Origin: Bacteroidota bacterium
Lineage (GTDB): Bacteria; Bacteroidota; Bacteroidia; B-17B0; Aurantibacillaceae
Direction: 5' to 3'
Length of the DNA: 64,000 bases
Assembly: GCA_033763945.1 (NCBI GenBank)
Contig: JANRJN010000018.1
Coordinates: 112,475-176,474, forward strand
The notes under the pieces are model-generated. The model did no database searches. It was not told where the DNA came from and was given only the letters and a program-made list of their open reading frames with translations. Each line of letters begins with the position of its first letter. Position 1 is the first letter of the stretch. Positions 11,056 through 43,099 of this stretch are shown here, piece after piece. The position numbers and the translations under genes were made by a program.

Positions 11056-11155
11056 AAATTAAATTTTTAACCACAAAGTTCGTAAAGTTTTTTACACAAA
11101 GGGTACAAAGAAAAAATCATTTTAAATGTTAGTGATCAGTGTTATCTGCGTTCCA

Positions 11156-27227: not shown

Positions 27228-27257
27228 AGCCTGATAATTATTATCAGGCTTTTTTTA
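27228..27257 (+). terminator. Rho-independent terminator
   Basis: AGCCTGATAA-tta-TTATCAGGCT forms a 10-bp stem, followed by seven T. Confidence 0.7.
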
Positions 27258-27290
27258 TTCTAATTAGTTTCAAAATCACTAATTACCCAC

Positions 27291-27331
27291 CAAGTAGTTT
27301 TACTTGATTTTTAGCAGGGAAAGTTACTTGA
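27291..27331 (+). promoter_or_regulatory. TACTTG-type operator-like repeats upstream of the giant adhesin gene
   Basis: Palindrome CAAGTAgtttTACTTG (27291-27306) and two TTACTTGA copies at 27300 and 27324, 24 bp apart. The same half-site recurs at 34.1, 36.8, 37.6 and 41.9 kb. Confidence 0.35.
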
Positions 27332-27590: not shown

Positions 27591-30500
27591 ATGGAACAAA
27601 AGTCACTTTACCTTAAAAATCAATTCTTAAAAGTATTTATAATCGTTTTCTCTGTTTTAACATTTGTAAATCAAGCAAGTAGTCAAACAACAATAGTAAA
27701 TTATGATTTTAATTCTGGTGCTAGTTATGCTGCTCTAACTCCAACCTTAGCTTCTGGTATCTCATGTTCAGCGAGTTCATCGGAAGCGTTTGCAACTTTT
27801 GTTGGAACTGCATCAGGTGGTGGTGCTTTTTCGAGCAATCCAACTGCTGGAAATGCGGTTGCAATGAATAATTCAAGTGGCACAAATACACGTTTCTTTC
27901 AGTTTAGCTTAACGGGCGCCTCTTTAGTAAATTACAAAACGTTTAAGATTTATTTTCAGGCTCAGCGATCAGGAACAGGAGCGCAAACCATAACGGTTCA
28001 ATACAGCTTAAATGGCGGATCATACACGGCTTTTACCACAAATACAATGGCACCTGGCAACGGCTCGTTCAACCAAGCTACAATAAACCTGCCGATTGCT
28101 GTCGATAATCCAACAACATCTCTGGCGTTTAGGCTTTTTGCAAGTGGAGCTTCTGGTACTGGTACATTAAGGATAGATAATTTCCAAGTGCAAGGAGCAA
28201 ACGCGCCACCTTCATCAACAGTATTAATTACCGCGCAAGACCCAAACACTCCAAGTTCTGTTAATTGGGCTTTAGGAAGCTCTGATAATCAATTTTATTG
28301 GGCGGCCATTACCCCATCTGTTACCGCAGCTACTTTAAATTCAGTTACCGCAAATATGACAGGTAGTTACCTAGCGGCTGATATTGGTACAAATGGATTT
28401 AAATTATATTATTCTTCAGATTTTACTTTTGTTCCGGGTGGTGATGTTCTTTTAGGGCAACAATCTTCATCCACAGGAAACGGAGAAACTATTTCGTGGA
28501 CAGGATTAACACAAAATTTTGCGGCAGGTTCAACCGGCTACATTTATGCAACGGCCGATATAACCTCAACAGCAACAGTTGGTAATACCTTGGCAGGAGG
28601 TTTTACTGGGGATGCAAATATTGTATTTTCTCCTACGGTTACTTATAGTACCAGTAACTCTTACGGAGCAACTACAAATAAAGTATTTGCCATGTTGCCA
28701 ACCAACCCTTCAACGTTTAGTGTAAGTTGTTCCTCGGAGGCGAATATTAAGGTAGCCATGAATGCCCCAACAAGTGGAACAGTATTAGTATTTGCAAATA
28801 CGGGGACAACGTTTACTGCCCCTACTGGTTCGGGCACAAGTTTTACGGGTGCTAATAATAATTTTGCATTAGCAACTAATTATGCGGCAGTTGGCGGACG
28901 TTTAGTATACAGTGGTGCTGGTAGTAACTTTACAGTTACAGGGTTAACCTCAGGACAAACTTATAGTTTAATTGCGTATTCATATAGCGGTTCTAATTGG
29001 AGTTCGGGTACGGCAGTTATAACTGGTACCGCTATTACTCAACCTGTAACCGCAACTGTTGTAACGCCTAATTCTGGGCAATTACAATTATCTTGGACAA
29101 ATCCTTCATCTACCGCTTGTAATAATAATGTAATTGTTATAGCTCGTCAAGGCTCTCCTGTTGAAACAGCCATTAGTAAAACCAACTTTGACGGATTATT
29201 AAGTGATGCGGATTTTACGGGTGCTAATACTACTTGGACTCTAAATTCAAATACGAATGATGTTTTTGATTTAACCTTTTCATTAATTGGTACAGATAAC
29301 ACTAACTTTTTAGTGTATAAAGGCACTGGAAATTCGGTAACAATAGATGGTTTAACAAACGGCACACCTTATTTTTTTAGAATTTTTACCGTAGATGGAG
29401 TTGGTTCTGCAGCTAAATGGAGTGCAGCTGTTGATGCAAACGGAACTCCTGATGCGCCTGGGTATTATTGGAATGGAGGCAGTATATCGAGTATTCCGGC
29501 TGCCGGAGGAACAGCAACATGGGGTTTGGCAAATGCATGGAGGCAGCCTGGTCCTTCTGGTTCTCAAGCCACATGGACAGATGGGAATGCTGCTATTTTT
29601 TCTGGCACTGCAGGTGTGGTAACATTAGATGCAAGTAGGAGCGCAACTGGCTATTCCTTTAATACTTCAAGTTATACTCTGCAAACAACATCAAGTACCG
29701 CCGTAAATCTTACTGGACCAATAAGTATAGCAACAAACTTAGGACTAGTTTTGGCGCCTAATTTCCCTTCTACCACCTTTGGAACCATTGGTGTGGGAAC
29801 TATAAATGGAAGCGGAACTGCGTCTGTGACGATTTATGGGAACCCTTCTTCGAGTATCGAAAATAACAGAATTAATTTAGCTTCGGCTAATTCCACTATA
29901 AATGTGCCTACAAATATTTTAACAACTTCAGGAATTGGCATGGCAGGTTACGTTTCAACTTCTGTTGGAGGAGTAATTAATGGAAATATTACCAATAATT
30001 CCGGCTTACGAACAATGATAGGTGCCACAAGCGGTAATGATTTAACTGTAAATGGAACGATCAGTGGTTCATCTGGTCTGCAAATTTCAGCCGGTGCCAG
30101 TGGCGGAGCCGGTAGAATAATATTTAATAGTAATAGTAATTATGCAGGGCAAACTGTTTTTAACGCAGCTAATTCAGGTACAATTGTGCTTGGAACAAAT
30201 AACGCTTTCCCTAACTTAACAAATCTTACGATGGCATTTTCTTCAAGTAATGGTGGGATTTTTGATTTAAACGGTTTTAATCAAACTATAGGTAATATTG
30301 CCAACAATTCAGGAGGAGGTTCTATAACAAATAATAATTCCACAAACAATAGTACACTTACCATCACACAATCTACCCTTGGAACCTTTGCTAGACCTAT
30401 AACAGATGGCTCTTTCAGAAAACTTGCCATTTCAAAAAGTGGTACAAGTACATTAACATTAAATGGAAATGGATATGCTTTTTCTGGTGGGTTGTATGCA

Positions 30501-33500
30501 AATGCTGGTGAATTAAAATTTAATCCAAGTTCTTCCGCCTATACTTTGAGTTCATGTCCTGTTATTTTAAACGGTGGAGCATTTGCAACTAGTGGAATTT
30601 CAGCAAGTAGTGTAGCTAGTTTTTCAACAATGGGGTTAACTAATAATTCCGAAATTAAATTAGAATCGGTTAACTCTCACACCTTAAGTTTTGCAACAAG
30701 TTCTACTGTTATCTGGACGGCATCTAGAACACTTACAATTACAGGTTGGCAGGGTACTTATTCAACTAGTGCAGGCTCGCCAGGTACTGTAGGTAGGATT
30801 TTTGTTGGAACTTCAACAGTTGGTTTAACAAGTACACAATTAGATCAAATACGTTTTTTTGATGGGACAAATTATTTTGGTGCTATTCTTTTATCTGATG
30901 GCGAATTAGTACCCCGTTGTTCAGCTTCTGTAACTGCAGTAAGCAGCAATACACCCTGCGAAAATTCAGCATTAAATTTAAATGTAACAACAACGGTTTT
31001 GCCTTCTACGCCATCCTTTTCATTATCCTATGTATGGGCGGGTCCAAACTCGTTTACAGCAGCTATACAAAATCCTACGATAGCCTCTTTGCCATTTTCC
31101 GGGGCAGGGATTTATACTGTTACTGCAAGTAATATGTGTTCTTCTACAACTTCAACATTAAATGTTACGGTTATTCAAAATCCCACAATTGTTCCAATTT
31201 CAAGCTTTTCGGTTTGCGGTGGTAAAAATGTAACGGCAATTAACTTTACTACTAATCCGGTTGGACAAAATACCTCATGGTTTAATACCAATACTGCAAT
31301 TGGTTTAAGCGCCAGTGGCAGTGGTAATTTGCCGTCGTTTACCTCTTCAGTTGTAACTACACCACAAGTAGGTGTTATTCAAGTAACACCATTTACAGGT
31401 GGTTGCATTGGTGCATCTATGAATTTTAATATTACAGTAAATGGTCCACAAGCTTCAACAATATGGACAGGCGCAGTATCATCGTCGTTTTTTGACCCTG
31501 ATAATTGGACTAATTGCGTGTGTGGAGCAACAACTGATGCAACAATTGCCGCTGTCACTTCGCCAAGTTTTAATCCAATAATTACATCTACTGCTAATGT
31601 AAATAGTTTAACAATCGATCCTAGCGCTTCATTAAGTATATCTACTAATCAAACTTTAAACGTTAATGGTAATTGGACAAATGATGGTTCTTTTGATGCA
31701 CAAAACGGTTTGGTTAATTTTATGGGAACTTCTGCCCAAATTATTAATGGCGCTTCAACTAATACTTTTAATGATTTAACGCTTAATAACACAAGTGGTT
31801 TAACCTTATCTTCAAATACAAATGTTAGAGGCACTTTATTGTTAACTAATGGAACTTTTAATACTAACAATCAATTAACCCTTTATGCAGATGCAACTGC
31901 TTCGGGTAGAATAGGACAAATAAGTTCGGGCGCTGATATTATTGGTAATGTTAACGTGCAACAATATGCACAACCTGGAGCAACTGGTTGGGCCTTTTTG
32001 GGTTCTCCGGTTTTATCTGGACTAACTATGAATGATTGGGAAGATAATTTCGCTATTACCTGTCCTGCCTGTACTTATTCAACCGTAGGAGGAGTGCCAT
32101 TTACATCCATCTATTCGTATGACGAAACTGTAGCTGCAACTTCTTATAGTGATGCTGCAAAGTACATTGCCATTAACGCATCTACAGATCCAATTAATCA
32201 TGGCGTTGGTTATTGGGTTTGGTTAGGAGACGGGAATACAAATGGCATTATGTTTGATACCCAAGGGCCTATTGCAAAAAGTAATTGCAGCAGTTGTGGT
32301 AGTTCAACGGTTTCTATTCCAATTACAAAATCTACCAATAATGGTGGTGGAAACGATGGATGGAATTTAATAAGTAATCCTTTACCTTCGCCAATAAGCT
32401 TTTCGTTATTAATAAATAACGACCCAAATGTTAACCCAACACTTTATGCTTACAACACCGATTTAAATAGCGGTAATGGTGCCATGGCCACGTATGTGCC
32501 TGCAACGGGTATTTCTGCTCCGTCTATTGGCTCGGGAGGTATTGGGGATGCAATACCAATGTGCCAAGGGTTTTATGTTGAAGCAACGAATAATACAACA
32601 TTGCTGGCTGGAGAAAATATTAAGATAGCGTCCAATCAATCATTTTTAAAATCTGCAGCTACTAATACATTGCCATTACTTCGATTATTTATGAATAGCA
32701 CTGCTGGTAAACATGATGAAATTGCACTTTGTTTTGTAAATGGTGCTACCGCAGGTTTTGATGCTGTGTATGACGCTCGTAAATTTATTTCGGATGCAAC
32801 TTACCCTTCTTTAGCAGCTATGAGTGGTACAAACCAATTAAATATTACCGCCTTGCCAAGTTTGTTAAATGTTCCAAATCAAAGTGTACCATTAAATGCT
32901 ATCTCTCCTAATACAAGTGTATTTACCTTTAGTTTGAGTCAAGAGAATTTTACGGATGGGATTTGTGTAGAGTTAATTGATAATTTAACCAATACTACTA
33001 CTAATATTTTAACAACACCATACACATGCACCTTGTATGATACAACAACTTTTAATCGTTTTACGCTAAACTTTAAAACGCAGCCATTACCTGGTATAGC
33101 CAATGTAAATCAGCCAAGTTGTGTATTACCTAATAGTGGTAGCATAGTAGCCTCGGGTAGTGCCGGTGCGCCTTGGAATTACGTTTGGAAAAACAGTAGC
33201 AACGTCATTGTAAAAACCTCGTTAAACGTAAGCGGCGCTGATAGCCTTGTGTCGTTAAATGGTGGTACTTATTTTGTTTCTGTAAATTCGGTAGGTACTT
33301 GTAATACGTTTACGCAATCATTGTCGGTAAACCCTGTGGTGTTGCCAACTTCGCAGTTTAACGCCAGTTCCGATACGGTATATTTATCAAGTGGGGCTTT
33401 TGTAAACTTTACCAATACTTCAAGCAACGCTACCAATTATTTTTGGAATTTTGGTGATGGTAATTCTTCTTCCATGATAAATCCTATTAATAGTTATTCA

Positions 33501-33869
33501 AATGTAGGTGTGTATCACGTAACCTTGCAATCTACCAGTTCAACTTTTTGCAGTGATAGTTCTTCACGCCAAATTGTTGTATTAGGCGCGCCGGTAGGTA
33601 TACATTCATTAAACATTGGTAATTTAATTAGCTTGCAAAACCATAATTTTAATGATTACAGTTTAAACTTTAAATTAAGTGAAAACGATAATGTAACATT
33701 AGTACTTACAGATATAAACGGAAAAATGGTATTAAATAAAACACAGAAAAATATTTCAGTAAATGAAATACCAGTTTCATTAAAGGATGTTGATGCTGGT
33801 GTTTATTTATTAACTGTAAAACTCGAGGCTAAACAAGAAACTAAAGTATTTAAGCTAATAAAATACTAA
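27591..33869 (+). CDS. Giant T9SS-secreted adhesin-like protein (2092 aa)
   Basis: Signal peptide and a Ser/Thr/Asn/Gly-rich beta-repeat body. It has autotransporter-associated beta-strand (PATR-like) repeats (KSGTSTLTLNGNGYAFSGGLYANAGELKFN), Ig-like repeats (YVWAGPNSFTA...GIYTVTASN) and a PKD domain (NYFWNFGDGNSS...GVYHVTLQ). The type A sorting tail is GVYLLTVKLEAKQETKVFKLIKY. Confidence 0.8.
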   Translation: MEQKSLYLKNQFLKVFIIVFSVLTFVNQASSQTTIVNYDFNSGASYAALTPTLASGISCSASSSEAFATFVGTASGGGAFSSNPTAGNAVAMNNSSGTNTRFFQFSLTGASLVNYKTFKIYFQAQRSGTGAQTITVQYSLNGGSYTAFTTNTMAPGNGSFNQATINLPIAVDNPTTSLAFRLFASGASGTGTLRIDNFQVQGANAPPSSTVLITAQDPNTPSSVNWALGSSDNQFYWAAITPSVTAATLNSVTANMTGSYLAADIGTNGFKLYYSSDFTFVPGGDVLLGQQSSSTGNGETISWTGLTQNFAAGSTGYIYATADITSTATVGNTLAGGFTGDANIVFSPTVTYSTSNSYGATTNKVFAMLPTNPSTFSVSCSSEANIKVAMNAPTSGTVLVFANTGTTFTAPTGSGTSFTGANNNFALATNYAAVGGRLVYSGAGSNFTVTGLTSGQTYSLIAYSYSGSNWSSGTAVITGTAITQPVTATVVTPNSGQLQLSWTNPSSTACNNNVIVIARQGSPVETAISKTNFDGLLSDADFTGANTTWTLNSNTNDVFDLTFSLIGTDNTNFLVYKGTGNSVTIDGLTNGTPYFFRIFTVDGVGSAAKWSAAVDANGTPDAPGYYWNGGSISSIPAAGGTATWGLANAWRQPGPSGSQATWTDGNAAIFSGTAGVVTLDASRSATGYSFNTSSYTLQTTSSTAVNLTGPISIATNLGLVLAPNFPSTTFGTIGVGTINGSGTASVTIYGNPSSSIENNRINLASANSTINVPTNILTTSGIGMAGYVSTSVGGVINGNITNNSGLRTMIGATSGNDLTVNGTISGSSGLQISAGASGGAGRIIFNSNSNYAGQTVFNAANSGTIVLGTNNAFPNLTNLTMAFSSSNGGIFDLNGFNQTIGNIANNSGGGSITNNNSTNNSTLTITQSTLGTFARPITDGSFRKLAISKSGTSTLTLNGNGYAFSGGLYANAGELKFNPSSSAYTLSSCPVILNGGAFATSGISASSVASFSTMGLTNNSEIKLESVNSHTLSFATSSTVIWTASRTLTITGWQGTYSTSAGSPGTVGRIFVGTSTVGLTSTQLDQIRFFDGTNYFGAILLSDGELVPRCSASVTAVSSNTPCENSALNLNVTTTVLPSTPSFSLSYVWAGPNSFTAAIQNPTIASLPFSGAGIYTVTASNMCSSTTSTLNVTVIQNPTIVPISSFSVCGGKNVTAINFTTNPVGQNTSWFNTNTAIGLSASGSGNLPSFTSSVVTTPQVGVIQVTPFTGGCIGASMNFNITVNGPQASTIWTGAVSSSFFDPDNWTNCVCGATTDATIAAVTSPSFNPIITSTANVNSLTIDPSASLSISTNQTLNVNGNWTNDGSFDAQNGLVNFMGTSAQIINGASTNTFNDLTLNNTSGLTLSSNTNVRGTLLLTNGTFNTNNQLTLYADATASGRIGQISSGADIIGNVNVQQYAQPGATGWAFLGSPVLSGLTMNDWEDNFAITCPACTYSTVGGVPFTSIYSYDETVAATSYSDAAKYIAINASTDPINHGVGYWVWLGDGNTNGIMFDTQGPIAKSNCSSCGSSTVSIPITKSTNNGGGNDGWNLISNPLPSPISFSLLINNDPNVNPTLYAYNTDLNSGNGAMATYVPATGISAPSIGSGGIGDAIPMCQGFYVEATNNTTLLAGENIKIASNQSFLKSAATNTLPLLRLFMNSTAGKHDEIALCFVNGATAGFDAVYDARKFISDATYPSLAAMSGTNQLNITALPSLLNVPNQSVPLNAISPNTSVFTFSLSQENFTDGICVELIDNLTNTTTNILTTPYTCTLYDTTTFNRFTLNFKTQPLPGIANVNQPSCVLPNSGSIVASGSAGAPWNYVWKNSSNVIVKTSLNVSGADSLVSLNGGTYFVSVNSVGTCNTFTQSLSVNPVVLPTSQFNASSDTVYLSSGAFVNFTNTSSNATNYFWNFGDGNSSSMINPINSYSNVGVYHVTLQSTSSTFCSDSSSRQIVVLGAPVGIHSLNIGNLISLQNHNFNDYSLNFKLSENDNVTLVLTDINGKMVLNKTQKNISVNEIPVSLKDVDAGVYLLTVKLEAKQETKVFKLIKY

Positions 33870-33884
33870 TATCATTTTCTTGTT

Positions 33885-34064
33885 TTACATTTTTATTTTT
33901 TGGTTCATCTCTAAATAAAGTATGAGAACAGAGTAGGTGTTGCCTATTTTACAAACCGCTTCTTGTAAATCTTTTTCTAAGCAATTTAGTTTTTTTGACC
34001 AATACGATATGCCTTCTTTGCTGGTATCAATTCTGCCATCTTTTAAGTAAGAATTAGTTTGCAT
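33885..34064 (-). CDS. Small DUF3606-like protein (59 aa, below the ORF-track cutoff)
   Basis: My translation of the minus strand is MQTNSYLKDGRIDTSKEGISYWSKKLNCLEKDLQEAVCKIGNTYSVLILYLEMNQKIKM. The segment I..YW.KKL.....L..AV...G resembles DUF3606. Confidence 0.45.
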   Translation of the reverse strand: MQTNSYLKDGRIDTSKEGISYWSKKLNCLEKDLQEAVCKIGNTYSVLILYLEMNQKIKM

Positions 34065-34099
34065 GAAACAAAAGTACGTAACATAAAAGCAAAGAAAAA

Positions 34100-34163
34100 T
34101 ACGTAAAACTACGTGAAAAAAAACAAGTAAATCTACTTGGTTTGACCAAGTAGGTGTACTTGG
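34100..34163 (+). promoter_or_regulatory. Operator-like repeat cluster upstream of the two-component operon
   Basis: CTACGTG (34109), CTACTTGG (34133) and GTACTTGG (34156) are phased 24 and 23 bp apart. A perfect inverted repeat CTACTTGG-tttga-CCAAGTAG lies at 34133-34153. Confidence 0.45.
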
Positions 34164-34314
34164 TTTTGTAAAGTATTTTTTTATTAAGCATCTGATTTTC
34201 AGTGGTATTTGTTGGATGTTGTTGTAAATTCATTTGCTTGACTAAATGAAAAAAGTGACTTTAATATTTAACATTTGTATATTTACCATATTAACCAATT
34301 AAAACAAAAAAACT

Positions 34315-34632
34315 ATGGCATTTACAGGTAATGAAGCAGAAGAGTTTCCGTTGGAAACTGCTGCAGAATGGACAAGAAACTACAGAGAGACAATGAAAGA
34401 AGGCGAACCCAAAGCGCATTTTTTCGGTAGAAACATTATTAACAGGATATTGGAACAACCGGGTTGCATGGGAATACGTATATATTATGCATTAGACGAC
34501 CAAGGTAAAAAACAATTGATTATGGTTGGCGCTGATGAAAATGAAAACGATCTTTTCAATGGTATAATCGCAGAAAAATCGTTTTGGTGTCCTCCTTTTT
34601 GCGATGGAAGCGGAAGCCCTTTAAATTCTTGA
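34315..34632 (+). CDS. Hypothetical protein (first gene of the sensor-regulator operon)
   Basis: 105-aa ORF whose stop abuts the next ORF; no family recognised. Confidence 0.5.
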   Translation: MAFTGNEAEEFPLETAAEWTRNYRETMKEGEPKAHFFGRNIINRILEQPGCMGIRIYYALDDQGKKQLIMVGADENENDLFNGIIAEKSFWCPPFCDGSGSPLNS

Positions 34633-34637
34633 TTTCT

Positions 34638-35282
34638 GTGAAAATACTTTTTGGAATATTAATTGCTCTTTCAGTACTCAGTCCTATCGTTCCAATTTTA
34701 TATTGCATTAAAAAACGTAGTGCCTTTAACAATCAGTTAAAGGCACTGTTTTTGTACATAGTTGTCGCAATAGTTGTTGATGTTTTTTCAGCAGTCTTTA
34801 ATTCATTTAAAATTAATAGATTGCCTTTGCAACTCTGTTTTGATATTTTTGAATTATTAATTATATCCTACTTATATTGGTTACAGTTTAATAATCGAGT
34901 TTTAAAATTTACAATTGTTAGTTTTGTAGGCATTTACCTCATTTCAATTGTTTATTTTTTTCTTACTCATCAAAATATTGAAAATATAATTAATTATGCT
35001 GATGTGATTGAAGCATCTATTATTATCATTTTATCTCTTATTTTCTTTTTTAAAGTATTGGCCGATTTAGAAATTCCTAAGCTTACCGCTTATCCATTTT
35101 TTTGGTTTAACTCCGCCTTTTTGTTGTATTTTGGCACGAGCTTCTTTTTATTTTTATTCAATAATAATTTAAGAAGCTTTAACGAAACAATAGTATTATT
35201 TTTAAACGCTATTCATTTGTTAATGAACATCTGTTTTAATACTATCCTATCTATTGGTCTATGCAAAGTCAAGAAAATATAG
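34638..35282 (+). CDS. Polytopic membrane protein (putative sensor input module)
   Basis: About six TM helices. The track ORF starts at 34584, but the in-frame GTG at 34638 lies just after the upstream stop. The 3' end overlaps the kinase ORF by 22 nt. Confidence 0.5.
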   Translation: MKILFGILIALSVLSPIVPILYCIKKRSAFNNQLKALFLYIVVAIVVDVFSAVFNSFKINRLPLQLCFDIFELLIISYLYWLQFNNRVLKFTIVSFVGIYLISIVYFFLTHQNIENIINYADVIEASIIIILSLIFFFKVLADLEIPKLTAYPFFWFNSAFLLYFGTSFFLFLFNNNLRSFNETIVLFLNAIHLLMNICFNTILSIGLCKVKKI

Positions 35283-36070
35283 CCATATTAATAGTTGTTG
35301 GTTGCTTGGCTATGTTAGTATTAGTTATCGCTATTATTATGTTTGTGGCTATTTACCAACGTAAAATTCTCCTAAAAGAAGCCAAAATAAAGTTAATTGA
35401 GAGCGAAAAACAAATTGATTTATTTAAAGCATCGGTGCAAGCCGAGGAGCAGCAAAAAGAAAAAATAGCAAATAATTTACACGACGAAATTAATCCTCTG
35501 CTAACCTTGCTAAAACAAAACTTAAGCAAACACCGTCTTCAAGCTCAAAAAAACACATTTGATCCCGACACCTTAAAGGCTGATTCCGAAATTATTGATA
35601 AAGCTATAGAAGGTATACGCACCACATGTATGGATTTAATTCCCTCTTTTTTATTTGAGTTTGGTTTTTTAAAAAGTATTGAAGATTACATTTATACACA
35701 TAAACAACACGAAAATTATTCGGTTGAAATTGAAAATAATACACAACCGCAGGATATAAATGTGTTTGATAAACAAACGCAATTGGCTATTTACAGAGTG
35801 TGTTTAGAGATATTAAATAATATTTTTAAACATTCGGCATGTAAACATTTTAAAATGAGTGTTCAAAAAAATGCTGAGGTTCTTATTTTAGAATTTTCTC
35901 ACGACGGTAAAGGTGTTACAAACGAAGATATTGAAATATACACCGAAAAATCGAAAGGCTTAGGTTTAAAATCGCTTAAAGCACGTGCCCTTATTTTAAA
36001 TGCAAAAATTGATTATCTTTTATCTCAAAATAATGCAAGTGTTAAACTAATTATTCCCTACACAGTATGA
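35261..36070 (+). CDS. Sensor histidine kinase (HisKA_3 / NarX-DesK type)
   Basis: One TM helix, a coiled coil, an H-box (NNLHDEINPLLTLLK) and an HATPase_c region (EILNNIFKHS...GLGLKSLKARA). Confidence 0.8.
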   Translation: MQSQENIAILIVVGCLAMLVLVIAIIMFVAIYQRKILLKEAKIKLIESEKQIDLFKASVQAEEQQKEKIANNLHDEINPLLTLLKQNLSKHRLQAQKNTFDPDTLKADSEIIDKAIEGIRTTCMDLIPSFLFEFGFLKSIEDYIYTHKQHENYSVEIENNTQPQDINVFDKQTQLAIYRVCLEILNNIFKHSACKHFKMSVQKNAEVLILEFSHDGKGVTNEDIEIYTEKSKGLGLKSLKARALILNAKIDYLLSQNNASVKLIIPYTV

Positions 36071-36717
36071 ACAAACAAATAAAAATTGGTATCGCCGACG
36101 ACCATTTGGTATTGCGTCAAGGATTTATTTCATTATTAAAAGAATTTGATGAAATGGAAGTTGTAATAGATGTAAGTAATGGAAAAGAATTGCTGGAGGA
36201 ATTAAAAAGAAATAAACCCGACATTATTTTGTTGGACATTGAAATGCCAGTAATGAACGGAAGAGAGGCATTAGAAAAAATTAAAATAAGGTATCCAAAA
36301 ATTAAAGTCATTATTATGAGTATGCATTTTAACGATGCTTACATTATTGAATTTATTAAAAACGGCGCTTGTGCTTTTTTACCAAAAAATTACGATATTG
36401 ATAAGATTGTAGATGCCATACATGCCGTAAAAGCCAACGGCTATTATTACGACAGTAAAGTGTCGGCCGCTATGGCAGAATTAATTAAGCGCAATCCAAT
36501 GCCTGAAGATGTTGTAACAGCTGCCAGCTTATTAACGCAACGCGAATTGGATATTATACGTTTAATGTGTCTTAAAAAAAGTACTACCGAAGTGGCTGAG
36601 GTACTCTACTTAAGTCCCAGAACAGTTGAGGGGCATCGCTTAAATATTTACAAAAAATTAAATATTAATAAGAATACAGACTTAATTGAATATGCCTTAT
36701 CAAACAAACTGGTTTGA
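36067..36717 (+). CDS. Response regulator, NarL/FixJ (LuxR-type HTH) family
   Basis: REC domain (IGIADDH...PDIILLDIEMPVMNG...IIMSMH) and a GerE/LuxR HTH (LTQRELDIIRLMCLKKSTTEVAEVLYLSPRTVEGHRLNIYKKL). ATGA overlap with the kinase gene. Confidence 0.9.
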   Translation: MNKQIKIGIADDHLVLRQGFISLLKEFDEMEVVIDVSNGKELLEELKRNKPDIILLDIEMPVMNGREALEKIKIRYPKIKVIIMSMHFNDAYIIEFIKNGACAFLPKNYDIDKIVDAIHAVKANGYYYDSKVSAAMAELIKRNPMPEDVVTAASLLTQRELDIIRLMCLKKSTTEVAEVLYLSPRTVEGHRLNIYKKLNINKNTDLIEYALSNKLV

Positions 36718-36755
36718 TTTATTTTTTTCTTTTGGTTTTAAGTAATCATAAATTT

Positions 36756-36810
36756 TTACGTGGTAAAAATCAAAAAAACTACTTGCTAAAAATCGAGTAG
36801 ATCTACGTAT
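36756..36810 (+). promoter_or_regulatory. Phased triple 8-mer operator/promoter element
   Basis: TTACGTGG (36756), CTACTTGC (36779) and CTACGTAT (36803) are spaced 23 and 24 bp. The sequence is about 85% identical to 37565-37612. The last repeat lies 112 nt before the ATG at 36915. Confidence 0.5.
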
Positions 36811-36914
36811 TTTTTAACTTAAATTTTATTTGTTTTTTTGATGTAGTTGTTTGGTAACAATTATATAACATTGTTTTCTGCAGCCATATGTTCTAAAAAT
36901 AAACAAAAATTAAA

Positions 36915-37475
36915 ATGGATACTATGGAAAATTGGAAAGATTACATTGATGATAAATTTGTTCCGAGGGAGCAATTTATATTTACATCCGAAAAATATTC
37001 AAACTCTTTAACCATTACAGATAAATACTCCCAAACTGTAATTCGTTTTTTTTGGCCGTCAAACAATTGGGCAACAATTGCCAATGTGCAGTTTTTTAAT
37101 TTAAAATCATCTATTGCGTCAGTCGAATTTAAGGAAATAACTTTTTCATTTAAAGACATTTCTGCCCTTGATAGGCATTTGCAACCCATATTTGAAAAAG
37201 ATTGGATAATTGAGCATACTTATTTTTTTGGTAAACTATGGAAATCTAAGACTATTTTAAATACACAACCACGTAAAACAAAAATCACCCAATACACTTC
37301 TGAGTTTAGTTTTGTAAGTCTATTACTGTTCTCTGTTTATGAACCTTTTGCAGGTTTAATTGGTCAAAAAAAGAGGCTCCGTATTCAGGCAATTAAAGCA
37401 GGTAATTGTATTAAAAAACAAGTTTTAAAAGAAGTTGTGCCAATGGAGTTTACCTCCGATTTAATTCACGCTTAA
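36915..37475 (+). CDS. Hypothetical protein
   Basis: 186-aa ORF behind its own copy of the triple-repeat element; no family recognised. Confidence 0.5.
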   Translation: MDTMENWKDYIDDKFVPREQFIFTSEKYSNSLTITDKYSQTVIRFFWPSNNWATIANVQFFNLKSSIASVEFKEITFSFKDISALDRHLQPIFEKDWIIEHTYFFGKLWKSKTILNTQPRKTKITQYTSEFSFVSLLLFSVYEPFAGLIGQKKRLRIQAIKAGNCIKKQVLKEVVPMEFTSDLIHA

Positions 37476-37557
37476 AAATTATTTGACATTAACTAGTTTA
37501 TCTAAATGCACTGAAGTAAAAAATTGTACCTAAGACTTAACGTTAATTTTACTTTTC

Positions 37558-37642
37558 CTACTTGCTTAAAAATCAAAAAACTACTTAGTAAAAATCAGGT
37601 AGCTCTACGTATTTACTTTTTTAAAACTAAAACTTATGTTTG
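37558..37642 (+). promoter_or_regulatory. Phased triple 8-mer element plus -7 box (TATGTTTG)
   Basis: CTACTTGC (37558), CTACTTAG (37581) and CTACGTAT (37605) are spaced 23 and 24 bp. TATGTTTG at 37635-37642 matches the Bacteroidota -7 consensus TAnnTTTG, exactly 30 nt after the third repeat. Confidence 0.5.
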
Positions 37643-37681
37643 AATCAGAAGTTTAAATACGAAAAATTAATTTTTAATAAC

Positions 37682-38164
37682 ATGGAAACACTTATTAAAC
37701 AAGAGAAAAAAACTAACTACGATCTTCATTCTTATTTTTTGCAGCAAGGTTTAAGTATTAGTGTTTTAAACGAATTATTAGATAGTAACACACACATGGT
37801 TAATATTAATAAACGTTTTTCAACTATTTTCGAAATGGTTTTGTATGGTTTGGTTGTAGCCACTTTTGCATTTGCCATTTATCTTCCCAACGAAATAATA
37901 ACAAATTTTCCATTAGGTAAAAGTTTTGGTTTTGATATTGGTTTTAAAAATGAGGCCTTGGCACAAACTCTATTTTTTGTAAAAGTAGCTTTCGTTATTT
38001 TAGCTTTTCCCATTTTAGCATTTGCTTTAGTATTACGACGTAGTCGCAAAAAAAGTGCAATTATCTATCAGGCTTATATCGAAACTGAACGGATGCATAC
38101 AGCTTTTTACAAAGCCATTGATGAATTTAAACTTCAAAAATTAGAAACTTCTTCTTACGAATAA
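37682..38164 (+). CDS. 2-TM membrane protein (paralog of 53484-53930)
   Basis: The start is moved to the ATG at 37682 because the TTG at 37640 sits inside the predicted -7 box. Two TM helices. Similar to the 53484 protein across its length, for example SYFLQQGLSIS vs TYFLKQGQSIS and LVLRRSRKKSAIIYQAY vs IVLMRNRKKNNLIHKVF. Confidence 0.55.
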   Translation: METLIKQEKKTNYDLHSYFLQQGLSISVLNELLDSNTHMVNINKRFSTIFEMVLYGLVVATFAFAIYLPNEIITNFPLGKSFGFDIGFKNEALAQTLFFVKVAFVILAFPILAFALVLRRSRKKSAIIYQAYIETERMHTAFYKAIDEFKLQKLETSSYE

Positions 38165-38179
38165 TTAAAAATAACTGTT

Positions 38180-38443
38180 ATGAAAAGCACTTTAAATGAT
38201 AAACAGCGGGATACATTAAACATGTTGCCGTATTTAAACAAACGGAAAGCTTCTTCTATATCGCATTATAAAATTGGCTTCGATTACATTATTGTGCGAT
38301 TTGCAGATGGACAAGAACTTAAATACAGTTACACGGGTAAAGCCGGAAAATACCATGTTGATAATATGAAAGGGCATGCGGCAAACGGTTTTGGATTAGC
38401 AGATTACATAATTAAAAACACAAAATTTTTACATGATGAATAG
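38180..38443 (+). CDS. Small protein, possibly KTSC-domain-like
   Basis: SSISHYKIGFDYIIVRFADGQELKYSYTG...GFGLADYIIKN resembles the KTSC pattern (sS.I..vgYd...L.V.F..G..Y.Y). This is a weak call made by eye. Confidence 0.35.
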   Translation: MKSTLNDKQRDTLNMLPYLNKRKASSISHYKIGFDYIIVRFADGQELKYSYTGKAGKYHVDNMKGHAANGFGLADYIIKNTKFLHDE

Positions 38444-38465
38444 AAGGATTAAATATTTTAAAAAT

Positions 38466-40004
38466 ATGAAAAAAATAGCAACTGCATTTATAGTTGTATT
38501 AATAATTAGCTTCATTGGTTGTAATAACAATAAAACTAAAGAAGACGAAACGAATAACACTTCGGTTTCATCTCCCTCTTGGCCGGGCTATCAACCAATA
38601 CCTTCCGGCTTCGATTATCCGGCAAACAGCACAACGCTTAACGCGGCGGTTGCTAATGCAAATATAGCTGTCATTCGTAACCATGCGTGGGCTTTGTTTG
38701 CCGGTATGATGCAGCCAGCCTCCAACAATGTAGGATGGCCGGTTTGGTACACTTGGCCTAATTCGGTAGATGCCATGCGCATAAAGCAAAAATTTTGTCA
38801 GGGTGATACAGGTACAATGCTGTTGATGCAAAAAATAAAAAACGTGTCCTTAATTCAACAAAATAAAATTCATATTACCGGAGGCGATACCATACTTGAT
38901 ACACTTCACACACCTTCCTATCCCATCCCACAACCCGTTATTAATCAGTTTAAAAATTTAAATGTATTTACCAATAATTACACCAACATTATTCCGGGTA
39001 AACATTTTTTATTTAATGGAGACATTATGATCCCTACAGAATCTATAAGCAACGATGGTTATAATTGGATTAACACCAACCGCTTTTATAATTCGGACGT
39101 AATGGATTCTTTGTTTAAAGTAAATAAGGGTAAAAATTTAAACGCCCCACCAACTTACATTATTACCAAGCATATGTATTGGCCGGTGCTTAAAGGACAA
39201 TTAAATTTAGTGCCGGTTTGGAACCGCTCCGCGTTTTCGCCAAGTTATGCTGGTTATGCCGGTTATGAAACATGGAAAAGTTTTGTGGCCATCGACCCTG
39301 GTCGCACATCGCAGGTCGTTCCTTCAAAACTCTCGTATTTATATGGCGTAAATAATTGGGAGAATAAGGCGCCTATTGGTCCCATAACTGTTAGTTTGCC
39401 AAGGGTATATAGCATTAATGATTTTTACCACCATCAAATTACACAAGACGATTGGAATGCATTTGATGCAAGCGACAAAGCCATATTAATGGCAGCCAGC
39501 TATTGGGCGTACAACAAACCTATTGGCGTTGGCGATTATTTAGTCACCATTGCTTCGCACATTAATACCAAAGAAATTTATAGCTGGACCATGCAAAGCG
39601 CTTGGTGGAGCGATAATCCGGATAGTGGCCCTTATTCTTTAAACCGTCCTAATTTACCTAATGCAAAAGGTCCTTGGAAACATTACGAATTGGTAGACGC
39701 CTACGGTGTGCCTGTAAACAATGCACAACAATTACCGGCAGCCAGTAATCCTTACATTGAGTTGGTAATACATCCTATACAAACCAATTGCAACAACTGC
39801 CACATGCGTGCAGGATATCCTACAGCACAAGTGCTAAGCAATGGTGCATCCTACCAAAACCCAACCTGTAAAGATTTGTTGCTAAAACTTACAGATAAAT
39901 CTTCTTGTTTATCGTATTACATGCGCACGGATTTTCAGTGGATATTACCAGACTACACGCACAAACAATTGTTGTGTAACGAAAAACCGACCGAAACGAA
40001 GTAG
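38466..40004 (+). CDS. Lipoprotein with a single C-terminal CXXCH motif
   Basis: The ATG at 38466 gives a lipobox (VLIISFIGCNNN). It is Trp/Tyr/Pro/Asn-rich, and NCNNCHMRAG near the C-terminus contains CNNCH. Confidence 0.5.
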   Translation: MKKIATAFIVVLIISFIGCNNNKTKEDETNNTSVSSPSWPGYQPIPSGFDYPANSTTLNAAVANANIAVIRNHAWALFAGMMQPASNNVGWPVWYTWPNSVDAMRIKQKFCQGDTGTMLLMQKIKNVSLIQQNKIHITGGDTILDTLHTPSYPIPQPVINQFKNLNVFTNNYTNIIPGKHFLFNGDIMIPTESISNDGYNWINTNRFYNSDVMDSLFKVNKGKNLNAPPTYIITKHMYWPVLKGQLNLVPVWNRSAFSPSYAGYAGYETWKSFVAIDPGRTSQVVPSKLSYLYGVNNWENKAPIGPITVSLPRVYSINDFYHHQITQDDWNAFDASDKAILMAASYWAYNKPIGVGDYLVTIASHINTKEIYSWTMQSAWWSDNPDSGPYSLNRPNLPNAKGPWKHYELVDAYGVPVNNAQQLPAASNPYIELVIHPIQTNCNNCHMRAGYPTAQVLSNGASYQNPTCKDLLLKLTDKSSCLSYYMRTDFQWILPDYTHKQLLCNEKPTETK

Positions 40005-40073
40005 GATTATACAAAACAGCAGATTAGTTACGGTAGCGAACGTTAAATAAAAAAATTAATTTTTAATTTTATT

Positions 40074-40568
40074 ATGGTAAAAAAATACAAGCTCTTTTTT
40101 TGTTTTACATTAATTTATTTTTCCGGTGTGTCTCAAAATGTGCAATTAGTGTACAATGGTACAAAAAAAGAAATACTGGATGCAGTAGCCGAAGCCAACA
40201 AATTATTATCAAATCCGGCATTTTATAAATCGGTAAATGCCATTCAAACCTTTGATAATACCAATTATTCAGGTGCCAAGATTGTAATGGAAATGAACGC
40301 TATTAAAACCATTCACGTAACAGAATATTACAAGAGGTTTAGCAAAACCAATGCAAAAACACAAACCGAAATACGCATCAACACGGCTCGCCTTAACCGA
40401 CATTTATCGTCTATTGTCAATACGTTAATTCACGAAACCATTCACGCTGTAGATTGGCTAAGCAACAGCAAATGGGATTACACACACAAAAGTCAAAAAG
40501 AAGAAATTCCGCCAATTTCAGCGCCTTACATGATTGGTGCCATTGCCGAAAAAATGATTTTACCTTAA
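40074..40568 (+). CDS. Small secreted HExxH-motif (zincin-like) protein
   Basis: Signal peptide (LFFCFTLIYFSGVSQ) and an HETIH motif in NTLIHETIHAVDW. The stop lies 3 nt before the lipase gene. Confidence 0.45.
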   Translation: MVKKYKLFFCFTLIYFSGVSQNVQLVYNGTKKEILDAVAEANKLLSNPAFYKSVNAIQTFDNTNYSGAKIVMEMNAIKTIHVTEYYKRFSKTNAKTQTEIRINTARLNRHLSSIVNTLIHETIHAVDWLSNSKWDYTHKSQKEEIPPISAPYMIGAIAEKMILP

Positions 40569-40571
40569 GAT

Positions 40572-41639
40572 ATGTTAGAGATGGAAGATAACACAAGCAC
40601 AACTTTACAAAGTAGCACAGTTACAATTAATTTGCAACAACTTACCTTGCCATGCCAATTGTTGAGCGCCAGTAGTTGTGCATATGATATTGAGAATAAA
40701 TCTGGCATCTACCCAAAACCTTTTTCTAACCCAAACTCGGCAAAGGCAATTGGTTGGCACGAAAATATACCCACAGTTGTTGTAGGAGGAATTGATAACG
40801 TTAATGCCGCATTGGTAGGAGTGATACAAAATTTAAACGTGCAAGGTAAGCCTACTTCTTCTATTGTTATTGCTTTTCAAGGTACTTTGGCCGCTAACAA
40901 TGTTAGAGGCATTATTGATTGGATGACAGATTTTTTTGCCAAGCCTGTTCCTTTTCTATTGGCTAAAGAAGGGGCAATGGTGCACGAAGGACTTTACTAT
41001 TCGGTAAATAGTATTTTGCCAAAGCTTAAACACGTGATAGATGATTTAAAACAAAAACATGCGGGTAACGATTTACCCATTTATATTACTGGTCATAGTA
41101 AAGGTGGCGGTATGGCAAGTATTTGCGCCGCTATGTTGGCAGCCGATTATAAGATAAAAGGTGTTTACACTTTTGCGTCGCCAATGATAGGCAATGCAGG
41201 CTTTGTAGCTAATTTTCCGACACAAATACCGGTCATCCGTTTCGAAAATTATTTAGACATTGTTCCCTTTTGTGCGCCCTCTGAGGCCTTTGTGCGTAGT
41301 TTATTAATTGCTGCGCTTAATTACCCGGAGTTTGCAGAGGATTTAAAAGTGTTTATAGACATCATTCAATTATCGGGAGATAAAAATGGTGCTTGGGGAT
41401 ATGTGCCTTTGGGGCAATTACATTACATTAAAAAAAATGGTACACTAGAAATCATTAGCTATCCGCCTTATGCCCCTAACGAAAGCGCTTTAGAAATTGC
41501 CTATACCCTGGCAAGCGGCGAAAGTGGTTTTAAGCGGGTAGCAGCTGCGCATGCCCATGGTTGCAGTAGTTTAGTAAACACTGTTTTTGTACCCGGTTAC
41601 CAGAACAGTGTTTGCAAAAACTCAGGTTTGTGTAAATAA
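40572..41639 (+). CDS. Class 3 lipase-like alpha/beta hydrolase (paralog 1)
   Basis: Nucleophile elbow ITGHSKGGGMA (GxSxG) with flanking VIAFQGT...DWMTDF, as in the Lipase_3 family. No signal peptide. Ends in GLCK. Confidence 0.7.
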   Translation: MLEMEDNTSTTLQSSTVTINLQQLTLPCQLLSASSCAYDIENKSGIYPKPFSNPNSAKAIGWHENIPTVVVGGIDNVNAALVGVIQNLNVQGKPTSSIVIAFQGTLAANNVRGIIDWMTDFFAKPVPFLLAKEGAMVHEGLYYSVNSILPKLKHVIDDLKQKHAGNDLPIYITGHSKGGGMASICAAMLAADYKIKGVYTFASPMIGNAGFVANFPTQIPVIRFENYLDIVPFCAPSEAFVRSLLIAALNYPEFAEDLKVFIDIIQLSGDKNGAWGYVPLGQLHYIKKNGTLEIISYPPYAPNESALEIAYTLASGESGFKRVAAAHAHGCSSLVNTVFVPGYQNSVCKNSGLCK

Positions 41640-41910
41640 AAAACATTAAACACAGAACAAAAAAATACAATTTGGCGTTTTGTATAAAAAGTAAATTCTA
41701 ATTACCTTCCGTTTTACTCGATATTTTGCAGAAAAACCAAGTAGAAATACCTACTCTTCATATTATGGTTTCGTTACAATTTTACTTGCAAAGTAAGTTT
41801 TAATTATACTGAATGCTGATCGTTTATAAAGAATTATTGCAAATAACCTTTAAGTACAGCGTTTGTAAATTTTATGTTAGGCTAATGTATGTTTAATAAT
41901 TTTTGTCTTT

Positions 41911-42002
41911 TACTTGCTCTACTTGGTTTTTGTAAGTAAAACTACTTGGTTAGATTGCGTAATTCTACGTGTTTTTATTTTTTAAACAATGTAGTATGTT
42001 TG
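41911..42002 (+). promoter_or_regulatory. Phased triple 8-mer element plus -7 box (TATGTTTG)
   Basis: TACTTGCT (41911), then CTACTTGG (41919), CTACTTGG (41942) and CTACGTGT (41965) at 23-bp spacing. TATGTTTG at 41995-42002 lies 30 nt after the third repeat, as at 37605/37635. The third repeat lies 112 nt before the ATG at 42077. Confidence 0.5.
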
Positions 42003-42076
42003 GCTATATAAGGTTAAAAGAAATAACACTTTAAAGAGCCATTTGTAAATTAAAAATAAAGTAACACTCATAATTT

Positions 42077-43099
42077 ATGCTAGCAAAAATAAATTTACCC
42101 TGCCAGTTATTAAATGCCTGTGCCTGCACTTACGATATTGTAGATAATACAAAAACTTACAATCCTGAATCTCTTTATGCAGATACAATTGGCTGGGGCT
42201 TAGGACCCGGAGCACCAACTGTAATTACGGGTCAAAACGAAAAGTATTATGATGCCGCTTTGGTTGGCATTGTTCAAAATTTACATGTGAATAATACAGT
42301 TGCTCCAGGCATTGTTATTGCTTTTCAGGGAACAATAAGTGTTACAACACCCGGAGGGTTAAAAGATTGGATGACAGATTTTGATGCTACGCCTGTTCCT
42401 TTCATAGAAGGCAAGACCGGCGATCTGGTGCACAAAGGCATTTACGATTCGGTAAAAAGTATACTATCACAAATATTACAAGCGCTTAGTACATTACAAA
42501 ATGCCAACAATTCATTACCAATTTTTGTAACCGGGCATAGTAAAGGGGGTGGTATGGCACCAATAGCAGCAGCTATTTTAATAAACAAATACAAGTATGT
42601 AATTCAAGAGGTGTATACGTTTGCCGCACCAATGATAGGCAATGCAAGTTTTGGGGCTAATTTTCCATTAAATAAGCCCGTACAACGTTTTGAAAATTAT
42701 ATTGACATCATTCCCTTTTTAATGCCTAACGATACTTTTATAAGTACGTTAAGAACTGCGGCAAATAATGCTACTCCTATCCATAAAGTTGAAATGGATT
42801 TGTTTATTGATTTTTTATTAACTGTGCGCAATAAATTTAGTGCCACAGGTTATGTGCCTTTGGGGAATTTAAATTTTATTAATGAGAACAGAACCATAAC
42901 GGTTACCTCATTTCCCCCTAACACACCTAACCCAAGTGCAATTGATTTGGCAAGTAAATTAGCAAGCGGTTTACCGGGCTTTGTAATTGTGGGCAATGCC
43001 CACAGTCATGCTTGTGGCAGTAAAGTAACAACAAATGGTATTAATTATTTTATGGGCTATATGGGCGGCGTTGCTAATCACATGGGCTTGTGTAAATAA
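42077..43099 (+). CDS. Class 3 lipase-like alpha/beta hydrolase (paralog 2)
   Basis: VTGHSKGGGMAP nucleophile elbow. Collinear with the 40572 protein (LPCQLL.A..C.YDI, VIAFQGT, DWMTDF, RFENY.DI.PF, GYVPLG, ending GLCK). Confidence 0.7.
   Translation: MLAKINLPCQLLNACACTYDIVDNTKTYNPESLYADTIGWGLGPGAPTVITGQNEKYYDAALVGIVQNLHVNNTVAPGIVIAFQGTISVTTPGGLKDWMTDFDATPVPFIEGKTGDLVHKGIYDSVKSILSQILQALSTLQNANNSLPIFVTGHSKGGGMAPIAAAILINKYKYVIQEVYTFAAPMIGNASFGANFPLNKPVQRFENYIDIIPFLMPNDTFISTLRTAANNATPIHKVEMDLFIDFLLTVRNKFSATGYVPLGNLNFINENRTITVTSFPPNTPNPSAIDLASKLASGLPGFVIVGNAHSHACGSKVTTNGINYFMGYMGGVANHMGLCK

Follow-up and report, generated by a model that had tools for sequence, protein, structure and literature searches.

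Results

Phased repeats accompany a sensor/regulator module

The window analyzed here is a stretch of 64,000 nucleotides from a Bacteroidota bacterium (GenBank assembly GCA_033763945.1, contig JANRJN010000018.1, positions 112,475 to 176,474 of the forward strand), in whose numbering all coordinates below are given. It encodes a four-gene sensory module consisting of a small cytoplasmic protein, a multi-pass membrane protein, a histidine kinase, and a response regulator, with a DUF3606 gene running divergently from its upstream end and further transcription units following the regulator gene (Table 1). Rows of short, regularly spaced repeats lie upstream of these units and are the subject of this report. 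A first-pass annotation had described them as three sets of a CTACKTGG 8-mer belonging to one promoter design, in which a class II-like activator would overlie the -33 region and the adjacent regulator would be the binder. The core of that proposal is supported by the comparative evidence presented below, whereas four of its details call for correction.

The nine repeats lie exactly where they had been placed, at 36756/36779/36803, 37558/37581/37605, and 41919/41942/41965, and the proposed phasing of 23-24 bp agrees with our measurements of 23/24, 23/24, and 23/23 bp in sets 1, 2, and 3, respectively. The 8-mer is less uniform than its consensus implied, being exact only at 41919 and 41942 (2/9), whereas the other seven repeats (TTACGTGG, CTACTTGC twice, CTACTTAG, CTACGTAT twice, and CTACGTGT) carry one or two mismatches; the sole invariant part across the nine is TAC[GT]T. 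The near-identity noted between 36764-36812 and 37565-37614 was also reproduced, with 43 of 51 aligned positions alike. Similarly, the NarL/LuxR-family regulator said to be encoded just upstream is indeed present, as a protein with REC and GerE domains encoded at 36067-36717.

With respect to chance, the window has a G+C content of ~32% and shows features of low-G+C Bacteroidota, namely type IX secretion system (T9SS) sorting tails and -7 boxes. TAC[GT]T triples phased at 22-25 bp occur on its + strand at four loci, the three reported ones and 34110/34134/34157, as compared with a chance expectation of about 0.013-0.039 per strand, and the minus strand holds a five-member TAC[GT]T chain (34171...34076). 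A position-weight-matrix scan of the window returned five clusters, every one of them inside 27-42 kb, which correspond to these four loci and the partial array at 27290-27331 (Table 1). The phasing of the TAC[GT]T core alone excludes chance. The three reported loci are confirmed, but the number of array loci rises to at least four or five. One addition is the regulator's divergent control region, which separates the DUF3606 gene from the sensor/regulator operon; neither it nor the partial fifth array was on the first-pass list.

Table 1. Repeat arrays, -7 boxes, and module genes in the window
Feature	Coordinates	Strand	Description
Partial fifth array	27290..27331	+	Palindrome CCAAGTAgtttTACTTGA (27290-27307) and half-site TACTTGA (27325-27331), 24 bp apart
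DUF3606 gene, 59 aa	33885..34064	-	Pfam DUF3606, E=4e-6, 27 bits vs cut-off 24.3
-7 box TACTTTTG of DUF3606 gene	34069..34076	-	Half-site TACGT (34105->34101) at standard offset
Fourth array, regulator's divergent control region	34099..34163		Three full 7-4-7 palindromes, ATACGTAaaacTACGTGA (34099), ACAAGTAaatcTACTTGG (34123), and CCAAGTAggtgTACTTGG (34146); spacing 24 and 23 bp
First operon gene, 105-aa cytoplasmic protein (MAFTGNEAE...)	34315..34632	+	Uncharacterized Bacteroidota family, orphan predicted fold
Multi-pass membrane protein, ~216 aa	34584..35282	+	Start codon uncertain
Histidine kinase	35261..36070	+	One N-terminal transmembrane segment, HisKA_3-type core, HATPase_c
Response regulator, REC + GerE (LuxR/NarL/FixJ-type helix-turn-helix)	36067..36717	+	Recognition helix RTVEGHRLNI
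Set 1 array	36757..36810	+	Half-sites TACGTGG (36757) and TACTTGC (36780), proximal palindrome TCGAGTAgatcTACGTAT (36793-36810)
Weak -7 box TTTTTTTG	36833..36840	+	In +30 register of set 1
Set 2 array	37559..37612	+	Half-sites TACTTGC (37559) and TACTTAG (37582), proximal palindrome TCAGGTAgctcTACGTAT (37595-37612)
Set 2 -7 box TATGTTTG	37635..37642	+	TAnnTTTG
Lone palindrome CCAAGTAgaaaTACCTAC	41737..41754		Just past lipase gene, ~260 nt upstream of predicted set-3 start site (position 12464 of relative L161)
Set 3 array	41920..41972	+	Half-site TACTTGG (41920), palindromes GTAAGTAaaacTACTTGG (41932-41949) and TTGCGTAattcTACGTGT (41955-41972)
Set 3 -7 box TATGTTTG	41995..42002	+	TAnnTTTG

The repeating unit is an 18-bp inverted repeat

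Each reported 8-mer is the right arm of an 18-bp inverted repeat with a 7-4-7 layout, and the direct 8-mer does not stand as the site. Across 46 sites from nine loci the consensus reads aa-yCAAGTA-gtac-TACTTGr-tt, with a promoter-proximal variant, aaaaTCRnGTA-n4-TACGTAT. The clearest palindrome in the window, CCAAGTA-ggtg-TACTTGG, is found at 34146-34163 in the fourth array, and the third (proximal) site is recognizably palindromic in each of sets 1, 2, and 3 (Table 1). In terms of spacing, the arm-to-arm distance inside a site is constant at 11 bp from center to center, whereas the gap between sites varies from 12 to 15 bp. Fixed spacing within a site and variable spacing between sites therefore identify the 18-mer as the unit, and each such unit would be expected to take one regulator dimer.

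Arrays occur with the module in related genomes

The related set comprised 15 metagenomic loci (designated by L numbers), of which seven were retrieved via regulator orthologues (57-70% identity, the best match among GTDB representatives being 70% identical) and eight via the 105-aa protein family. As controls we used 2.0 Mb of Bacteroidota DNA, made up of loci around non-orthologous (paralogous) regulators. All 15 loci keep the four-gene module of 104-aa protein, membrane protein, HisKA_3 kinase, and REC-GerE regulator, and the DUF3606 gene of these relatives is mostly divergent upstream of the module and once downstream. Arrays are found in 12 of the 15. A triple palindrome array stands upstream of the operon in L001, L003, L004, L082, L083, L161, L162, and L164, and L002 and L166 have related versions of it.

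Over a total of 182 kb, the orthologous loci yielded 19 phased pairs of palindromes and 6 triples, as compared with 9 pairs and no triples in the 2.0 Mb of controls; the 19 pairs observed exceed an expectation of 0.82 (P about 1e-19), and the same test without the discovery window gave 14 against 0.53 (P about 1e-15). Conservation does not extend to the genes past the regulator, which encode CHASE3-PAS, PAS-SpoIIE, FRG, GmrSD, luciferase-like monooxygenase, Amidase_2, and HNH proteins, among others, in relatives and lipases and PLD proteins in the window. Further arrays precede this varied cargo in the relatives. Since the cargo is unrelated between genomes, the array goes with the regulator and not with the cargo.

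A phased pair was also encountered past the regulator gene in Labilibaculum (L008/L010), where the regulator is 38-39% identical; its geometry differs (CGTAATTACG, with the box 39 nt away), as does the recognition helix, and we regard it as a separate system. Two of the relatives depart from the usual layout past the regulator gene. In L163, the segment 12440-12560 contains about nine GAGTAG half-sites in one orientation that end in a full palindrome, which lies 31 nt rather than 30 before TATGTTTG and represents a variant of the grammar. In L004, three tandem repeats of ~125 bp (…ccatataagacatgtaaggac…cttatatgccttatatggtat…) occupy 10690-11110, directly past the regulator gene and in the place held elsewhere by a target array.

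Palindromes stand at a fixed distance from the -7 box

The TATGTTTG boxes at 37635 and 41995 had been reported to lie exactly 30 nt past the third repeat, and they do so in both cases (37605 to 37635 and 41965 to 41995). A TAnnTTTG box is also present as TACTTTTG at 34076 on the minus strand, whereas set 1 has only TTTTTTTG. The same distance recurs outside the window, as the right arm of the last palindrome begins 30 nt before TAnnTTTG in 16 promoters from eight independent lineages. When these promoters are aligned on the box, TAC begins at -41 in all 16, which holds by construction; further TAC starts lie at -65/-64 in 10 of the 16, at -89..-87 in 12, and at -112/-111 in five, and the GTA end falls at -46 in 15. 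Moreover, for the window and L001-L005, -29 was the commonest half-site-to-box offset, being found at 7 of 202 boxes; it was not the commonest in the controls, where 2 of 1287 had it (Fisher p=2e-5). Successive sites, three to four per row, follow one another every 23-24 bp at targets, a period that widens to 23-26 bp in the regulator's control region.

Transcription start site (TSS) positions were derived from the placement of the sigma-A box at -12..-5 in Flavobacterium psychrophilum, as determined by differential RNA sequencing (PMC9723704). On this scale, dimer centers would fall near -43.5, -67.5, -90.5, and sometimes -114, and the proximal palindrome of the 16 promoters would span -52..-35 with its center at -43.5, which fits the class II site range of -41.5 to -44.5. 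The predicted TSSs of sets 1, 2, and 3 are about 36845, 37647, and 42007, respectively. As regards a -33 element (TTTG/TTG), the 16 aligned promoters show no consistent TTG around -36..-30. Such an absence would be expected of activator-dependent promoters, and in F. johnsoniae a genome-wide study did not recover the -33 motif (PMC7366714).

The DUF3606 gene provides a further hint. Its start codon lies 4 nt past the box in the window, L001, L002, L004, and L082 and 5 nt past it in L163, which lends independent, if indirect, support to the TSS assignment. The mRNA is predicted to be leaderless, with transcription beginning at the start codon; leaderless mRNAs make up only about 4-5% in studied Bacteroidota (PMC9723704, PMC7366714). 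The 4-nt distance was seen in L083 and L161 as well, such that a start this close to the box is present in every genome examined, the codon being ATG except in L004 and L083, where it is GTG.

At the operon promoter on the + strand, autoregulation of the regulator operon is suggested by position only, because a recognizable or conserved -7 box is missing at +30 there in seven genomes including the window. In L001 and L002, TTTGGCAC lies near the operon promoter and might be read as a sigma-54 element, but inspection of the sequences showed no -12 TTGC element, and this reading was rejected.

Conservation between the window and a close relative

In comparison with the close relative L161, the blocks that start with the array and end a little past the box are 93-100% identical, whereas the upstream flank and the leader diverge. 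Two of the N4 spacers are altered in L161 (GATC to GTAC and GCTC to GTAC) and the arms around them are retained. The lone palindrome CCAAGTAgaaaTACCTAC is also inside a conserved block with diverged flanks, and it may be an auxiliary or looping site.

This comparison also bears on the claim that the third repeat is exactly 112 nt from the ATG at both 36915 and 42077. The arithmetic is right (36803 to 36915 and 41965 to 42077), but the meaning attached to it is not upheld. In L161 the first target gene begins at the codon equivalent to window position 36924 (MENWKDY...) and not 36915, and another gene, with a leader of ~120 nt, stands behind the set-3 promoter. Given these differences in start codon, downstream gene, and leader, the equal distances are probably a coincidence. 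The leaders of sets 1 and 3 (36880-36914 and 42040-42076) also have AGCCATnTGT...TAAAAATAAA in common directly before the start codon; this likeness is not kept in L161 and is probably fortuitous A-rich sequence.

Nucleotide homology with L161 runs unbroken from 31195 to 42016 (L161 12742), where it ends 9 nt past the predicted set-3 TSS. Beyond the set-3 promoter, the window has Lipase_3, CrtC-like, and PLD genes, as compared with a 146-aa secreted-looking protein and others in L161.

Half-site sequences were also set against the recognition helices of the regulators encoded alongside. Helices of the form RT[VI]EGHR[YL]NI pair with AAGTA/TACTT (nine loci), ESHRYNI with TTAAGTA..TACTTAA, EGHRYRI with GAGTA..TACTC, and EGYRK with ACGTA..TACGC, and no array accompanies EVHRFNI, DFHR, or DKHR. 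Half-site changes appear to track the recognition helix of the regulator, although these pairings are suggestive only.

The sensor/regulator module

The response regulator is, on the basis of its sequence, a genuine member of the NarL/FixJ family, with Pfam matches to Response_reg (E=4e-25) and GerE (E=2.8e-13) and full-length PDB matches to VraR, NarL, DesR, and DevR, of which VraR is the closest (5hev, E=2e-26). It falls within no named equivalog, since even the best match, MctR, scored 154 bits where 300 would be needed, and the others were under their cut-offs too. An alignment of 11 homologues shows residues D12, D57, and K107 without variation, and together with the GerE helix-turn-helix they make the protein look functional. 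The kinase has an HATPase_c domain plus partial matches to MctS, UhpB, NarX, and LiaS, and HisKA_3 was called in its orthologues.

The 105-aa protein belongs to a Bacteroidota-restricted family of about 110 clusters, ~104 aa in length and all annotated "hypothetical", with two near-invariant C-terminal cysteines (CPPxC). Its AlphaFold model (pLDDT 86.6) found no PDB match (best E=0.24, TM<0.3), and neither it nor the membrane protein has a Pfam or NCBIfam match. Within the membrane-protein gene, a hairpin with a 14-bp stem and a T-run on both strands (34717-34749) may be an internal attenuator or mere coding sequence. The DUF3606 gene is the sole target conserved across genomes (tblastn: L001, L002, L004, L082, L083, and L161). 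In the searchable literature, neither the module nor the function of DUF3606 was covered, and no account of NarL-type operators in Flavobacteria/Bacteroidetes was found.

Transcription units and other features of the region

Set 1 is followed by the gene for a 183/186-aa protein, predicted as its target (36915/36924-37475). Just past the weak box of set 1, a 29-nt block (TAGTTGTTTGGTAACAATTATATAACATT, 36846-36874) is 100% identical in L161, with the preceding 4 nt and the following leader differing there, and TTGTTTGG(C/T)A(C)AAT is present past the operon array of L002 as well; the block may be a second promoter element or a leader element.

The operon past set 2 (37682-41639) encodes a membrane protein, an 87-aa protein, a 523-aa lipoprotein, a SprT-like protein, and a Lipase_3 protein. 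The predicted lipoprotein (38433-40004) has a PG1828-like signal peptide and, near its C-terminus, a CNNCH sequence that resembles a motif for haem c binding. Identity with the L161 orthologue is 94% for this protein, as compared with 72-84% for most operon neighbors and 93% for the lipase. Set 3, which has an extra half-site (TACTTGC at 41911), precedes genes from 42077 for Lipase_3, CrtC-like, PLD-like, and other proteins. Its promoter is flanked by paralogous Lipase_3 genes (40572-41639 and 42077-43099), with segments of 74-86% nucleotide identity at an offset of ~1448 bp. The first copy alone is shared with L161, and the second is 48% identical in protein sequence to the L161 orthologue of the first. 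Run against the cargo proteins, defence-system models gave only weak PLD-domain matches.

The partial array at 27290-27331 directly follows a hairpin that resembles a terminator (about 27228-27255). It precedes by 260 nt a giant gene (27591-33869) whose 2092-aa product ends in a T9SS sorting tail; there is no -7 box at +30 of this array. A box at 16823 in the standard offset is inside a coding open reading frame, has a single half-site, and was taken as chance. No known RNA families or tRNAs were found in 27-43 kb or in the window, and a sigma-70 promoter/terminator scan was uninformative for this phylum, with 35 sites as compared with 38 expected.

Discussion

A proposed operator array for a NarL/FixJ-family regulator

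Taken together, these observations make it likely, as judged from sequence comparison, that the arrays are operators of the adjacent NarL/FixJ-family REC-GerE regulator, that they are loaded cooperatively, and that the proximal dimer serves as a class II-type activator at promoters that do without a -33 element. In the mechanism that we envisage, the HisKA_3 kinase would phosphorylate the regulator, and phosphorylated dimers would fill the array in a cooperative fashion. RNA polymerase would be recruited, in a class II-like manner, by the proximal dimer, which would occupy -52..-35 in place of the -33 element. Within the window, the regulon would include the DUF3606 gene, the gene at 36915/36924, the operon 37682-41639, and the operon from 42077, probably also the regulator's own operon, and maybe the giant secreted-protein gene at 27591.

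Several findings weigh against this proposal. The distal sites of sets 1 and 2 consist of the right arm alone, with a left half that cannot be recognized, and the weak box of set 1 reads TTTTTTTA in L161, such that its G is not conserved and the core of the set 1 promoter is uncertain. The lack of a -7 box at the + strand operon promoter in seven genomes, described above, belongs here as well. With respect to the helix, a period of 23-24 bp amounts to ~2.2 turns, or ~11.6 bp per monomer, which would not put the dimers on one face of the DNA. Each of the half-site variants is a single example, arrays were not seen in the module-bearing loci L165, L167, and L168, and the sequencing runs that hold the locus are metagenomic DNA only, with no RNA runs found.

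Among the alternatives, a regulator that binds the arrays but represses from them, or acts both ways, through occlusion or looping and with induction on release, appears unlikely. There is precedent in NarL, a repressor at some promoters (PMC4549865), and the crowding of the DUF3606/operon control region, which is filled with three palindromes and TACGTA hexamers, one of them (34075-34080) overlapping the minus-strand -7 box, would suit such a role, as would the lone palindrome 260 nt upstream of set 3 if it served looping. The sites of the 16 promoters nonetheless end at -35 and leave the -7 box and predicted TSS uncovered, the promoters lack a -33 element as activator-dependent ones do, and the rigid 30-nt offset to the box is better suited to protein-polymerase contact than to simple occlusion. 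A different binder for genuine arrays, whether an unlinked global regulator, the DUF3606 protein, or the 105-aa protein, is distinctly unlikely, even though the 105-aa protein has a fold without known match and no function is on record for DUF3606: among the module products, a recognizable DNA-binding domain is confined to the regulator, an 18-bp inverted repeat fits a GerE-type dimer, the half-site variants appear to follow changes in the recognition helix, and no arrays surround the paralogous regulators in 2 Mb of Bacteroidota DNA.

The likeness of sets 1 and 2 at 43 of 51 positions raises the question of whether a duplicated or mobile promoter cassette, lacking a dedicated regulator, might simply have passed on its phasing by inheritance rather than selection. 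The proximal site of L082 (TCAGGTAgtgcTACGTAT) almost equals that of window set 2, and the homology with L161 stops 9 nt past the set-3 TSS as though a cassette bordered a variable region. Between lineages, however, the inter-site and N4 bases diverge while half-sites and distances stay, the control-region arrays follow the same grammar with a sequence unlike that of the target arrays, and half-site variants change by genome in step with the regulator, all of which makes this explanation very improbable. Finally, the AT-richness of the window and the degeneracy of the exact 8-mer might suggest that a short AT-rich word has clustered by chance in intergenic DNA of similar composition, but four loci against about 0.01-0.04 triples expected, and their recurrence at orthologous positions in other genomes, leave that idea with virtually no credence.

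In terms of significance, very little is known about activator action at Bacteroidota -33/-7 promoters. The regulator-operator model favored here offers a precise and conserved grammar from uncultured lineages, in which an 18-bp palindrome centered at -43.5 is joined by more dimers every 23-24 bp under a NarL-family regulator, and it yields a testable regulon with predicted start sites. The promoter cassette is compact and might be of use as an inducible part for Flavobacteriia/Bacteroidia. The analysis also highlights an uncharacterized four-gene sensory module, represented by about 110 protein clusters, whose first protein has a confidently predicted fold without PDB match. A broader suggestion, which we regard as doubtful, is that the five-gene core, made up of the DUF3606 gene and the four-gene module, is a Bacteroidota stress/antagonism-sensing hub and that its portable, regulator-dependent promoter cassette stands at the gateway to cargo that can be swapped, with homology to L161 ending 9 nt past the predicted set-3 TSS. 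If this were true, the locus would be an inducible, cargo-exchanging island with one operator grammar and a non-helical regulator filament (about 11.6 bp per monomer), its cargo being phospholipase-like in the window (two Lipase_3, PLD, and SprT-like proteins) and consisting of amidase, FRG/GmrSD, HNH, and signaling proteins in relatives.

Comparison with known systems

By analogy, the closest architecture appears to be that of the BvgA-activated promoters of Bordetella pertussis (Pfha and Pptx). There too, a NarL/FixJ-family response regulator uses inverted-repeat dimer sites in a regular row, the last dimer site abuts the upstream promoter element, and strong and weak sites are mixed. Specifically, BvgA dimers bind head-to-head on inverted heptads, three to six per row and 22 bp apart with the last abutting -35, and the phosphorylated protein loads cooperatively (PMC7250471). 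The period of 22 bp places all BvgA dimers on one face, whereas it is 23-24 bp (up to 26) here; BvgA heptads abut (TAAGAAATTTCCTA), whereas a 4-nt spacer separates the arms here; and the strongest site is distal at Pfha, whereas the proximal site is the best conserved here. The core promoter is of the sigma-70 -35/-10 type in Bordetella and of the Bacteroidota sigma-A -33/-7 type in our case, and binding, which has been demonstrated for BvgA, is something we infer for the present regulator.

With respect to NarL, the activating 7-2-7 sites are centered at -44.5 (napF) and -42.5 (yeaR) (PMC4549865; PMC4886647). These centers are close to the -43.5 predicted here, and the two systems also have in common a GerE-type helix-turn-helix and a heptamer starting with TAC. 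The first-pass annotation had gone further and likened TACTTGN to the NarL heptamer TACYYMT, a likeness that holds as far as TACYY and then ends. Positions 6-7 are M-T in NarL and G-G/R in the TACKTGr of the present sites, and the orientation and spacer differ as well, with TAC outermost and a 2-nt spacer in the NarL 7-2-7 (TACCCCT-AA-AGGGGTA) but TAC innermost and a 4-nt spacer here (GTA-N4-TAC). The base-contacting residues, which we take to be K-V-H in NarL, are E-G-H in this regulator. On these grounds the resemblance between the heptamers is superficial.

In gene order, the module resembles the VraUTSR/LiaFSR cell-envelope stress systems of Firmicutes, which likewise consist of a small protein, a membrane protein, a minimal-sensor HisKA_3 kinase, and a NarL-type regulator, and whose regulator binds the promoter that serves its own operon (bioRxiv 10.1101/2024.11.18.624069). 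The accessory proteins here show no detectable similarity to LiaF/VraT or VraU, and the phylum, the cargo, and the operator sequence are different; the resemblance is one of layout only.

Class II activation by LuxR/TraR involves a GerE helix-turn-helix dimer on an 18-20 bp inverted repeat that is centered at about -42, over the upstream promoter element. Regulators of that type are one-component proteins that bind a ligand and act from a single site, whereas the system proposed here would combine a phosphorylated response regulator with an array. If it operates as proposed, the mechanism would vary a known theme of biology and add no new principle.

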